A DNA stretch of 64,000 nucleotides, taken from contig JACQQA010000005.1 in the NCBI GenBank assembly GCA_016207245.1, positions 64,068-128,067 of the forward strand, written 5' to 3'. Below, piece by piece: positions 22,684-53,128 of the stretch. Under the pieces are notes generated by a model that was not told the origin of the DNA, did not search any database, and saw only the letters and a program-made list of their open reading frames with translations. Origin of the DNA: Candidatus Magasanikiibacteriota bacterium. GTDB taxonomy: Bacteria; Patescibacteriota; Patescibacteriia; Magasanikbacterales; UBA922. Each line of letters opens with the position of its first letter. Within the stretch, counting starts at the first letter, position 1. The position numbers were made by a program, and so were the translations under genes.

Positions 22684-22959
22684 ATGTTTTTTGTCTACAT
22701 AATACAAAGTTTAAAAACCGGTAGGTTCTACATCGGTTGTACGAAGGATTTGGAGAAGAGGCTACGGCAACATGGAAAGGGTGAAAACGTGTCAACCAGA
22801 TTCGGTTGTCCTTGGGTGTTGGTGTGTTATCGGAAATTTCTTCGACAACAGGAAGCATACGGGTGTGAAAAATTAGTGAAATCGTACAAAGGTGGGAACG
22901 GTTTCAAAAAAATTATCAATGGAGAGGTGGCTGAGTGGTCGAAAGCGGCACGGTGCTAA
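22684..22959 (+). CDS. Small stand-alone GIY-YIG nuclease-domain protein
   Basis: MFFVYIIQSLKTGRFYIGCTKDLEKRLRQH carries the GIY..YIG motifs. 91 aa. The ORF runs into tRNA-Ser, and its stop TAA (22957-22959) overlaps the tRNA anticodon loop. The track's upstream extension to 22645 was rejected. Confidence 0.8.
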   Translation: MFFVYIIQSLKTGRFYIGCTKDLEKRLRQHGKGENVSTRFGCPWVLVCYRKFLRQQEAYGCEKLVKSYKGGNGFKKIINGEVAEWSKAARC

Positions 22960-23011
22960 CGTGTTGTCTGGCTTTAAAACCGGACCCAGGGTTCGAATCC
23001 CTGCCTCTCCG
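22921..23011 (+). tRNA. tRNA-Ser (anticodon GCU), class II with a long variable arm
   Basis: Acceptor GGAGAGG/CCTCTCC. 3-bp D-stem. Anticodon stem GCACG/CGTGT with loop gtGCTaa (GCT at 22955-22957). Long variable arm. T-arm CAGGG-TTCGAAT-CCCTG. Discriminator G. CCA is not encoded. Confidence 0.9.
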
Positions 23012-34275: not shown

Positions 34276-34345
34276 GTTATCAGTTAGCGAACCGTATACG
34301 TTGCGTATCGGCAAAACACTCTTTAGGGAGTGTTTTTGCTTTTTA
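34276..34345 (+). ncRNA. Candidate ~70-nt small RNA complementary to parts of the adjacent tRNA-like gene
   Basis: Bounded by the promoter above and by the terminator AAAACACTCT-ttag-GGAGTGTTTT-TGCTTTTT (34313-34345). 34276-34312 is the reverse complement, in permuted order, of the anticodon-loop and V-arm/T-arm segments of 34379-34464. Confidence 0.4.
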
Positions 34346-34378
34346 TTTTGTGATATAATATTGCCGGCGGTCGGGCAA

Positions 34379-34464
34379 GGAGAGTATTTCCGGACGGTTC
34401 CGGGCGCTAATTGATAACTAGTCGATACGAGAAATCGTATACGGTTCGACTCCGTTGCTCTCCG
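34379..34464 (+). tRNA. Non-canonical tRNA-like gene: 8/4 selC/allo-tRNA-type cloverleaf with anticodon loop TTGATAA (GAU)
   Basis: 8-bp acceptor GGAGAGTA/TGCTCTCC. 6-bp D-stem with 4-nt loop CGGT. Weak anticodon stem with a canonical 7-nt loop. 6-bp variable arm with a GAAA loop. 4-bp T-stem with loop TTCGACT. Discriminator G. Preceded by TGaTATAAT (34351-34359). Confidence 0.6.
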
Positions 34465-34481
34465 CCGCTAAAGCAACTCTG

Positions 34482-35213
34482 TTAAAGGGTTGTTTTATTT
34501 TCGTGAAGCGAGTATTTCGGATTTAATTTTATGAACGGCAATTGGATTTTTGTTTTTTGCGCGATGATGCTCATTAAGAAATTGAAAGCAATATAAGTGA
34601 GTGTGATGCCAACTGCCATCAAGCCGCGTTCTTTCCAGACGACGGGAATCAATCCAATCCATAATAGCGCTTTCATATTAAATATCCAAACCCACAACGC
34701 CCCGCCAACAGCGTGAGCCGTGAAAGTGGCACCTAAAGCGCGGAGCAGGACGGATTTTTCATGGAAGAAATACGCGGCCATCGGGATTAGCCAATATAAA
34801 GCATAATACCACGCCTGTCTTCCCTCGGGGTGCGCCCAGAAAACAATCATGGCGATTGCCGGGACCAACAGCATCCAGCGAGATTTTTTAGCGAAGTATA
34901 ATAAGGCAAACAACATCGGGAAAAAGCGGACGATCGTTCCGGCGTCAGTGGCAAATCCATGCCAAGCCCAGTTTGCCAGTTGCATAATCGCAACCGCGAT
35001 TAAGCCCCAGATTGAACCAACGAATCCACCAGCGATCGGGCCGTAGAAATCAAACAGCGAGAAACGAATACCCTTTGCGCCGACGAGTTGTGAGAAAGGG
35101 ACTTGCATTGCGCCCCAACCAAGGAGAGCAAAAATGGAGAGGAATACTATTTTTTTGAGATTAAGTTTTTGCATAGAAATTATATTATAAATTTTCAATT
35201 TACAAATTTTCAT
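34482..35213 (-). CDS. Polytopic membrane protein, unknown function
   Basis: About 6 hydrophobic helices. The true start may be the internal MQKLNLKK (35174). Confidence 0.55.
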   Translation of the reverse strand: MKICKLKIYNIISMQKLNLKKIVFLSIFALLGWGAMQVPFSQLVGAKGIRFSLFDFYGPIAGGFVGSIWGLIAVAIMQLANWAWHGFATDAGTIVRFFPMLFALLYFAKKSRWMLLVPAIAMIVFWAHPEGRQAWYYALYWLIPMAAYFFHEKSVLLRALGATFTAHAVGGALWVWIFNMKALLWIGLIPVVWKERGLMAVGITLTYIAFNFLMSIIAQKTKIQLPFIKLNPKYSLHENKTTL

Positions 35214-41465: not shown

Positions 41466-41537
41466 GCACCCGTCGTTCAACGGATAGGACACAAGATTGC
41501 GGATCTTGTAATCGAAGTTCGATTCTTCGCGGGTGCA
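41466..41537 (+). tRNA. tRNA-Arg (anticodon GCG)
   Basis: Acceptor GCACCCG/CGGGTGC, D-stem GTTC/GGAC, anticodon arm CAAGA-ttGCGga-TCTTG, T-arm CGAAG-TTCGATT-CTTCG, discriminator A. No CCA is encoded. Confidence 0.9.
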
Positions 41538-41554
41538 CTTTTAATTTTGATTAT

Positions 41555-53051: not shown

Positions 53052-53128
53052 GCGCGTGTAGCTCAGTTGGTTAGAGCGCGTCACTGATAATGACGAGGTC
53101 CCTGGTTCAAATCCAGGCATGCGCACCA
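53052..53128 (+). tRNA. tRNA-Ile (anticodon GAU), CCA encoded
   Basis: Acceptor GCGCGTG/CATGCGC, anticodon arm CGTCA-ctGATaa-TGACG, T-arm CCTGG-TTCAAAT-CCAGG. Confidence 0.95.

Follow-up and report, generated by a model that had tools for sequence, protein, structure and literature searches.

Transfer RNAs whose identity contradicts their anticodon challenge the uniform reading of the genetic code within a cell, and how cells tolerate such natural genes has been an open question since the allo-tRNAs were described. The published allo-tRNAs come from Clostridia, Proteobacteria and Acidobacteria, have UAU, GCG and GUC as predominant anticodons, and are reported with no mention of an antisense partner (PMC5389517). 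For members other than those considered here, serylation and activity on the ribosome were shown in Escherichia coli, and allo-tRNAs with leucine anticodons inserted serine and killed this bacterium; the authors considered that they might serve as missense suppressors, as regulatory RNAs or as elements linked to toxin-antitoxin systems (PMC5389517). Among the latter systems, type VIII is defined by an RNA toxin that is masked by an antisense RNA (PMC8610362). The present work deals with 64,000 nucleotides of a Candidatus Magasanikiibacteriota bacterium (assembly GCA_016207245.1, contig JACQQA010000005.1, forward-strand positions 64,068 to 128,067), the whole stretch being called the window and numbered from its first letter. 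At 34379-34464 of the plus strand it holds the gene of an allo-tRNA with the isoleucine anticodon GAU and, upstream of it, a second gene predicted to encode a small RNA, which very probably pairs with the anticodon arm of that tRNA. If a cognate antisense RNA masked the anticodon, the question of tolerance would have a direct answer. Neither an antisense partner of allo-tRNAs nor a small RNA dedicated to the anticodon arm of a tRNA was found in full-text searches limited to open-access papers. An earlier note on this DNA had described the tRNA-like gene, and its interpretation is partly supported by the results below; the partner small RNA, the feature that most constrains function, had been overlooked.

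A Predicted Small RNA Complementary to the Anticodon Arm

The anticodon loop of the allo-tRNA (TTGATAA, 34411-34417, plus strand; UUGAUAA in the RNA, with GAU as anticodon) is closed in the window by a weak stem, whose five positions are G.U, C-G, U-A, A-U and A.C. On the same strand lies a promoter of the form TTGACA-17 nt-TATTAT (34241-34269, 11 of 12 consensus matches), which is the only match in the window to the promoter combined with NTATCAR. The predicted product, here called the anti-tRNA, is a small RNA of about 62-74 nucleotides (nt; 34276-34349, plus strand, predicted ends) composed of a single-stranded 5′ antisense segment, a small hairpin (34292-34311, predicted fold) and a predicted intrinsic terminator (34313-34336 and a U run). 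Its antisense seed GUUAUCAGUUAGCG (34276-34289) pairs with tRNA positions 34405-34418 (CGCUAAUUGAUAAC) over 14 base pairs (bp) including one G.U, and this target comprises nucleotide 26, the 5′ strand of the anticodon stem, the entire loop and the first nucleotide of the 3′ strand. The predicted duplex reaches -24.5 kcal/mol compared to -11.6 ± 2.4 kcal/mol for shuffled sequences, none of 1000 being as stable. A close view of the arm shows that the segment CGCUAA finds six Watson-Crick pairs in the small RNA, whereas its own 3′ strand offers a G.U, a bulge and an A.C. No Rfam family matched the small RNA in the window scans, either at the gathering score or in the sensitive mode.

Relatives were sought with a degenerate DNA pattern, which gave 17 matches in viral contigs and at least 120 stretches in metagenomes, 94 unique sequences when combined; fetched loci carry L-numbered names. 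Among the matches listed, 16 GAU members and one GAC member share a common scaffold, one has the anticodon UAG, and the remainder have serine anticodons; in L141 the loop is the non-serine UUUGCCAA, probably with anticodon GCC. The 17 non-identical relatives among the matches listed, all from metagenomes, belong to the candidate phyla radiation (CPR)/Patescibacteria and to Chloroflexota/Dehalococcoidia, and together with the window they form a core set of 18 non-identical GAU/GAC sequences. When the flanks of all members were read, a second gene appeared in every locus, upstream or downstream of the tRNA, always laid out as a -35 and a -10 box, 14-16 nt of antisense at or next to the predicted start, a small hairpin and a strong intrinsic terminator. 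The TTGAC-type -35 and the -10 recur in the relatives at a constant distance to the antisense site.

All 18 non-serine members have a complementary site on the same strand scoring at least 11 of 15, situated at -104 to -125 from the tRNA in 13 cases, at -189 in one and at +135/+136 in four. Cognate pairs reach a complementarity of 13.7 out of 15 versus 5.6 for non-cognate ones. Treated as an intermolecular helix, 96.9% of the cells are paired, compared to 27-40% in slid registers, a percentage that is inflated by taking the best match of each locus as the antisense site; the stereotyped positions and the serine-type controls count against an artefact. Moreover, 12 of the 15 intermolecular pairs show double changes, and the small RNAs follow the loops of their tRNAs, with GUGUCAA facing the GAC member, AUAUCAA a loop UUGAUAU and UUAUCGG a loop CCGAUAA. 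Cofolding is predicted to change the free energy (ddG) by -10.0 ± 5.2 kcal/mol in cognate and by -1.0 ± 2.6 kcal/mol in non-cognate pairs; the small RNA of the window gives -11.0 kcal/mol with the allo-tRNA and -1.2 kcal/mol with the canonical tRNA-Ile. As for the controls, none of the 72 tRNAs of 8/4 geometry (8-bp acceptor stem, 4-bp T stem) with serine anticodons among the matches listed has a partner at a stereotyped position (maximum 11, mean 6.8), and 11 of the 12 tRNAs with complementary runs of at least 15 nt, out of 1080 called by ARAGORN in all fetched DNA, belong to the present family. Going by these sequences, partnering is confined to tRNAs in which the anticodon and the serine-type identity disagree. 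Antisense partners were likewise missing for three allo-tRNA(UAU)-like genes, one UAG gene and the canonical tRNA-Ile of the window. The UAU genes (L105:2763-2854, L192:2677-2768 and L148:11710-11798) are tRNA-like genes of 89-92 nt with a long arm and an encoded CCA, with no partner within 600 nt, and are similar to the allo-tRNA(UAU) class that is abundant in the published set.

The target itself stands out, since the anticodon stem is the sole weak helix of the core set (81% of cells paired versus 99-100% elsewhere), and the predicted minimum free energy (MFE) of the anticodon arm is -1.5 kcal/mol in partnered tRNAs versus -3.6 kcal/mol in 8/4 tRNAs with serine anticodons (Mann-Whitney p = 6e-5). 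On the side of the small RNA, no consensus structure emerged from MAFFT and RNAalifold applied to 14 sequences, the middle hairpin differing in place and length from one to the next; the evidence for it thus consists of folds of single sequences and the intermolecular pair count. In L002 both hairpins are kept through compensatory changes.

A very improbable reading of this arrangement is that the antisense element forms a leader or attenuator in cis within the tRNA transcript, masking the anticodon arm until processing. In loci of the CPR type the element does lie about 100 nt upstream on the same strand, where read-through of the terminator would give one transcript; between the two, however, stand a strong intrinsic terminator and a conserved extended -10, and in four metagenome loci, as well as in the module-bearing Dehalococcoidia loci collected without the pattern, the element is downstream and has its own -35 and -10. 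Dehalococcoidia and L123 have the two genes in reverse order, each with its own promoter, which argues that the small RNA would act in trans.

The Allo-tRNA Gene and Its Family

The tRNA gene itself had been read in the earlier note as an 8/4 allo-tRNA-type cloverleaf, distinct from selC, with a serine-type acceptor, a long variable arm (V-arm) and the anticodon GAU. Every element then listed is confirmed base for base: an acceptor stem of 8 bp including one G.U (GGAGAGTA, 34379-34386, with TGCTCTCC, 34456-34463), a 2-nt linker, a D arm TCCGGA-CGGT-TCCGGG (34389-34404) with a 6-bp stem and a CGGU loop, the anticodon loop given above, a V-arm ATACGA-GAAA-TCGTAT (34425-34440) of 6 bp with a GAAA cap, a T arm ACGG-TTCGACT-CCGT (34441-34455) with a 4-bp stem and a UUCGACU loop, the discriminator G73 (34464), and the extended -10 TGATATAAT (34351-34359), all on the plus strand. 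No CCA is encoded. The extended -10 is the predicted promoter of the gene, and by eye a TGnTAnAAT-like element is equally spaced in relatives of the CPR type. An intrinsic terminator follows (34469-34497, plus strand), which is conserved in L002. RNAfold gives the same cloverleaf as the MFE structure (-30.6 kcal/mol), and a 7/5 reading would require a U.U pair. Two further statements on the genome were borne out: G73 and the first six acceptor pairs are the same as in the canonical tRNA-Ser(GCU) at 22921-23011, and ARAGORN and Rfam both find a normal tRNA-Ile(GAU) at 53052-53128.

ARAGORN called five ordinary tRNAs in the window and no gene at 34379-34464, and Rfam gave no match there at the gathering score; in the sensitive Rfam scan tRNA-Sec (RF01852) is the best match with 37.0 bits and an E value of 5e-6, below its cut-off of 47. 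A covariance model of the family (R2) scores the window allo-tRNA with 87.5 bits. Of the 17 relatives, ARAGORN labels 13 as tRNA-Ile (tRNA-Val for the GAC member) and makes no call in four, and in the loci of 15 relatives neither RNA matched Rfam at the gathering score. Rfam is thus silent on both genes at this score, and ARAGORN misses or mislabels the allo-tRNA.

Within the core set, 96.2% of the cells are paired, compared to 74.1% for shuffles and 36-55% in slid registers, and 16 of the 28 pairs show double (compensatory) changes. The two pairs on which the geometry turns co-vary, namely the eighth acceptor pair (A-U in 15, G-C in 3) and the first pair of the T stem (G-C in 11, A-U in 5, C-G and G-U in one each), both helixes being fully paired. 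All six pairs of the D stem show double changes (99.1% paired; loop CGG(Y), 3-4 nt), and the V-arm co-varies over 5-7 bp. GAU is found in 17 of the 18, many members have C or U at position 38, and G73 is invariant, also in the members obtained without the pattern. L002 and the window share GAU but differ by compensatory changes in the D, anticodon, V and T stems. The homologue comparison proposed in the earlier note thus shows compensatory changes in the acceptor, D and T stems alike.

Such covariation across 18 sequences confirms the 8/4 geometry and excludes the decaying relic that the earlier note had offered as an alternative. A functionless chance cloverleaf, or a pseudogene of tRNA-Ser or selC, has next to no probability. 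It would be in keeping with the missing ARAGORN and Rfam calls, the weak anticodon stem, a single-sequence fold whose advantage over shuffles is modest (z -2.27; 6 of 200 shuffles equally stable) and the loss of most of the gene in L001; against it stand, besides the covariation, the members found without the pattern, the conserved promoter and terminator and the co-varying partner RNA. On these sequence grounds the allo-tRNA gene is real and conserved, more than chance, and the window gene is to be regarded as belonging to a new subfamily of the published 8/4 allo-tRNAs. An origin of the GAU type in phages was considered and rejected, as the 17 matches in viral contigs are all 8/4 tRNA-Ser genes with serine anticodons and a matching acceptor stem. 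As a side observation, 8/4-type tRNA genes occur in clusters of three or four in several loci (L102, L183, L187, L207, L175, L104, L138/L161/L176, L090 and L083; 45-74 bits with the family model), presumably organisms or phages in which the entire tRNA-Ser set is 8/4.

Since the search pattern itself dictated the acceptor stem and the T loop of the members from metagenomes, further loci were fetched by way of a neighbouring protein. High-GC members lie between ahcY and metK in Dehalococcoidia (Chloroflexota), and five of nine further ahcY-metK loci (L218-L226) carry the RNA: L218, L220, L223 with two copies, and L224 and L225, the last two identical in MetK protein and tRNA sequence. It is absent from the other four, which represent three distinct loci (L219, L226, and L221 with L222, which share a MetK protein). 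In these members, collected without the pattern, GGAGAG(Y)(R)...CUCUCC and G73 are kept while all other stems vary, which speaks for recognition of the acceptor end by a protein. In L223 (860-1510, minus strand) a tandem pair of complete modules lies between ahcY and metK, one GAU and one GAC, each with a matching small RNA; that of the GAC type pairs with the loop and the 3′ stem strand and not with the 5′ strand.

The anticodon loop raises the question of whether this is an odd but faithful tRNA-Ile, charged by isoleucyl-tRNA synthetase (IleRS) through its GAU/A37 loop, with no recoding and with a small RNA that tunes its availability. The loop YUGAUAM matches tRNA-Ile, GAU is nearly invariant, and the ARAGORN labels of the relatives point the same way; IleRS identity is, moreover, dominated by the anticodon loop. 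Nevertheless we consider this reading improbable, since the acceptor end is that of the genome's own tRNA-Ser, with G73 and G4-C69 in place of the A73 and C4-G69 of tRNA-Ile, many members have C38 or U38, a normal tRNA-Ile(GAU) is already available, and the gene is dispensable in close relatives. In addition, a harmless isoacceptor needs no dedicated antisense RNA, and the 8/4 tRNAs with serine anticodons do without one. Identity with the canonical tRNA-Ile(GAU) proper is excluded by the 8/4 geometry, the long V-arm, G73 and the absence of an RF00005 match at the gathering score.

A Possible Anticodon-Masking Mechanism

The reading that we prefer is that the small RNA masks a serine-type tRNA which reads isoleucine codons, forming an RNA-only device that resembles a toxin-antitoxin pair or a mistranslation switch; from the sequences, we give this composite an even chance. 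In such a scheme the U-turn of the anticodon loop would be the docking site of the small RNA, which would then invade the weak anticodon stem; the 14-bp duplex so formed would conceal the anticodon from the ribosome and from proteins that read it. Free allo-tRNA would most likely be charged with serine, because seryl-tRNA synthetase (SerRS) ignores the anticodon, and would insert serine at AUU and AUC. These codons make up 6.6% of the total in ten genes of the window; as SerRS is blind to the anticodon and related allo-tRNAs killed E. coli, free serylated allo-tRNA(GAU) would be harmful. A stable and harmful tRNA restrained by an abundant antisense RNA could then work as a type VIII-like toxin-antitoxin pair, as an abortive-infection module or as a regulated mistranslation switch. 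The near-consensus promoter of the small RNA, the weaker extended -10 of the tRNA, the patchy distribution and the ease of loss fit type VIII-like logic or such a switch, and the last two recall an addiction module.

More tentatively, and with somewhat less than even confidence, the pair might constitute a previously undescribed module, an 'anti-tRNA' system in which a serine-charged tRNA for isoleucine (or valine, or glycine) codons is silenced by a dedicated small RNA against its anticodon arm. With the same reserve, such a system of CPR bacteria and Dehalococcoidia would be an RNA-only toxin-antitoxin or abortive-infection device, or a programmable mistranslation switch. If true, tRNAs would join the RNA toxins and regulated effectors, and synthetic biology would gain a natural, sequence-programmable off-switch for suppressor tRNAs.

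Several points weigh against the masking model, besides the inflated pairing percentage and the preset search pattern mentioned above. The window copy has a mismatched A.C at 31:39 and is missed by ARAGORN and, at the gathering score, by Rfam, and 31:39 is mismatched in nine of the 18 core members. IleRS and valyl-tRNA synthetase (ValRS) read the anticodon, so that charging with isoleucine or valine, or unproductive binding, would have to be reckoned with, and the t6A modification (N6-threonylcarbamoyladenosine) at position 37 would block part of the duplex in the mature tRNA. A pure toxin model, moreover, would leave the strong conservation of G34-A35-Y36 and A37 without explanation; no model fully accounts for this near-invariant segment. 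In Dehalococcoidia, the T loops (UGCAAGU) and D loops (GAGU) are non-canonical, unlike those of the CPR type, and L218 has no anticodon stem, yet is complementary to its own small RNA over 15-17 nt. L218 and the non-canonical loops suggest that RNA-RNA pairing rather than decoding may be what is conserved.

This last point leads to an unlikely alternative, a regulatory RNA duo in which decoding plays no part: the small RNA would be the effector, with the tRNA-shaped RNA as a sponge or decoy dedicated to it, or the tRNA-shaped RNA would titrate a protein that reads the anticodon, such as IleRS or ValRS, under small-RNA control, its shape serving stability and protein recognition only. RNA-RNA pairing is indeed the most conserved property, even in L218 after the loss of its anticodon stem, and the non-canonical loops of Dehalococcoidia are of one piece with it, as are an orphan small RNA with a UAUCAG core in L171 and L216 and the 9-nt complementarity of the window small RNA to the loop region of the canonical tRNA-Ile; a true target or partner specific for tRNA-Ile would entail the conservation of GAU and A37. 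On the other hand, about half of the small RNAs track positions 32 and 38 of their own allo-tRNA (C38 or U38) and not the canonical CUGAUAA, and the canonical tRNA-Ile is predicted to be bound hardly at all (ddG -1.2). A sponge would not need strict conservation of a serine-type acceptor and G73 across phyla, and no conserved mRNA or protein neighbour was found.

Host Locus, Insertion and Loss

In the window the pair occupies the spacer between the gene of a FolC-like Mur ligase (32884-34212, minus strand) and that of a conserved membrane protein (34482-35213, minus strand), which belongs to no Pfam family and for which an exact-sequence look-up gave no record; DprA is also encoded nearby. Homologues of the membrane protein assign the window to Candidatus Magasanikbacteria, a group of the Patescibacteria/CPR. 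The genes of the membrane protein and FolC stand side by side in 37 related loci, with 0-90 nt between them in most, while the window and L002 have a 270-nt spacer. A covariance model built from these two found the gene at the syntenic site in only two of 80 loci, the window and L002 themselves; nhmmer with the tRNA sequence recovered L002 alone over the same loci, covariance models being required. As 78 of the 80 membrane-protein loci lack it, the gene is not a conserved feature of Magasanikbacteria. In L001 (90% protein identity) a deletion joins the FolC start to the T loop of the tRNA, and the 3′ 20 nt and the terminator remain. The module is therefore an opposite-strand insertion into an operon spacer, and it can be lost.

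Two other readings of the locus were rejected. An open reading frame of 74 amino acids (34190-34414) has no Pfam match and crosses two terminators. An attachment site or repeat finds no support either, given that the 3′ half of the tRNA is single-copy in the window, no integrase lies nearby and the L001 remnant is a simple deletion. No conserved protein partner emerged, the loci being flanked by unrelated housekeeping genes.

Some regularities of the insertion sites may be added. The module lies opposite to both flanking genes in seven independent cases and on the same strand in two, probably because in the latter orientation its terminators would exert a polar effect on the host operon. The spacers that host it belong to apparent operons, namely membrane protein-FolC, dnaK-dnaJ, yebC-ruvC and ahcY-metK (window 34213-34481; L117, L205, L123, L209, L125 and L171/L216). 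Genes of folate or one-carbon metabolism adjoin several independent insertion sites, which may be chance: a FolC-like ligase, FolD, a PurU-like formyltransferase, a gamma-glutamyl ligase of the F420/folate type and AhcY-MetK (window 32884-34212; L101, L200, L157 and L171/L216/L218/L220/L223/L224). Elsewhere in the window, at 41466-41538 on the plus strand, ARAGORN and Rfam find a tRNA-Arg of ordinary 7/5 shape with the anticodon GCG, which is unusual in bacteria, where it is normally ACG (read as ICG).

Further Features of the Module

A second module in L114 (1225-1436, plus strand) lies 350 nt downstream of an allo-tRNA(GAU) module. Its tRNA is an ordinary 7/5 molecule of 73 nt with the alanine marks G3:U70 and A73 and the loop CUUGACA, for which ARAGORN gives the serine anticodon UGA, and it is preceded by a promoter TTGACA-17-TACTAT and a terminated small RNA. 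The latter contains CACUCCCUGUCAA, the 13-nt Watson-Crick complement of the tRNA loop and 3′ stem strand. This sequence suggests that antisense partners also occur outside the 8/4 scaffold, and its alanine-identity scaffold hints at cognate antisense RNAs as a possible general safeguard against missense tRNAs.

A DnaA-box-like sequence, TGTGGATAT (34227-34235, plus strand), one mismatch away from the reverse complement of the consensus TTATCCACA, is located just upstream of the small-RNA promoter. In one CPR subgroup TGTGGATAA/T, the reverse complement of that consensus, stands about 5-9 nt upstream of the small-RNA -35; the motif falls at -48 to -52 from the antisense site in the window, L002, L134, L125, L114 and L209, against a background of 0.45 per kb, and by eye the second L114 module has it as well. 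It may belong to the module, as a site of DnaA control or as a shared upstream element. A short 5′ leader of the tRNA starting with a conserved GGCGG (34366-34378, plus strand, by eye), with GCGGAGA at this place in other CPR members and in Dehalococcoidia, has its counterpart in all relatives and is complementary through GGCGG (34366-34370) or GCGGAGA to the 3′ acceptor strand, G73 and trailer (CCGCC or UCUCCG). Leader-trailer pairing, anti-acceptor pairing or a GC-rich promoter discriminator may be behind it.

The middle hairpin of the small RNA resembles the V-arm of its cognate tRNA, as seen for AUACG..CGUAU in both RNAs of the window and AUUCG..CGAAU in both RNAs of L002. This likeness is greater for cognate than for non-cognate pairs (permutation p = 0.0025), weak and uneven, and might reflect a partial duplication; it is kept outside the argument. 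Finally, the orphan small RNA genes of L171 (1165-1258, minus strand) and L216 (1895-1990, plus strand) follow the cognate one, each with its own promoter and terminator. Their 5′ ends read GGUUAUCAGGC... or GGGUAUCAGCUGAC... around the UAUCAG core, do not match the adjacent tRNA, and have no second tRNA nearby.

Comparison with Known Systems

With tRNA-Sec (RF01852) the window tRNA shares the 8-bp acceptor, the 6-bp D stem, the 4-nt loop and the long V-arm; an assignment to selC was rejected, given the lack of UCA, a T stem of 4 and not 5 bp, a branch of 12 and not 13 bp, and 37.0 bits versus 47. The 8/4 tRNA-Ser of phages and bacteria is closer, having the identical acceptor GGAGAGUA/UGCUCUCC, G73, the T arm GGUUCGACUCC and a long V-arm, but it differs in its serine anticodons (GCU, GGA, UGA and CGA), stronger anticodon arms, a mostly different D arm and the absence of an antisense partner.

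As regards the pairing, base pairing to the U-turn loop of a tRNA or tRNA-like structure is also found in the T-box specifier, CopA/CopT and RNA I/RNA II, and a YUNR-type loop is the nucleation site in antisense kissing-loop systems. T-boxes, unlike the present element, are long cis leaders of aminoacyl-tRNA synthetase or amino-acid genes that pair with 3-4 nt of the anticodon and read NCCA, whereas here a short RNA, apparently acting in trans, would pair with the entire loop and one stem strand and regulates no downstream gene. A T-box riboswitch was rejected on these grounds, together with the absence of an Rfam T-box match and an element of about 70 nt with its own terminator, sometimes downstream of the tRNA.

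Type VIII and type I toxin-antitoxin systems (SdsR/RyeA, hok/sok; PMC8610362) likewise use an antisense RNA as antitoxin, and in type VIII the toxin is itself a small RNA. Antisense pairing of the two adjacent small RNA genes is here strongly supported, at the level of prediction, by covariation and cofolding, and the module is small, self-contained, patchy and dispensable, as toxin-antitoxin systems are. It departs from type VIII in that the presumed toxin is a tRNA that would act by mistranslation, its toxicity being presumed, and in that the partner is encoded in trans on the same strand with about 14 nt of complementarity.

The closest relatives are the published 8/4 allo-tRNAs (PMC5389517), with which the family shares the 12-bp branch of 8 + 4, a tRNA-Sec-like D stem with tetraloop, the long V-arm, G73, SerRS-type identity and a non-serine anticodon. 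The longer anticodon stem of the described allo-tRNAs is not found, the stem here being a weak one of 5 bp. Unlike them, the present subfamily occurs in CPR/Patescibacteria and Chloroflexota, has the anticodons GAU, GAC and probably GCC, and comes each time with a cognate small RNA, and it is this small RNA against the anticodon that would make of the pair a defined two-RNA system spanning CPR bacteria and Dehalococcoidia.

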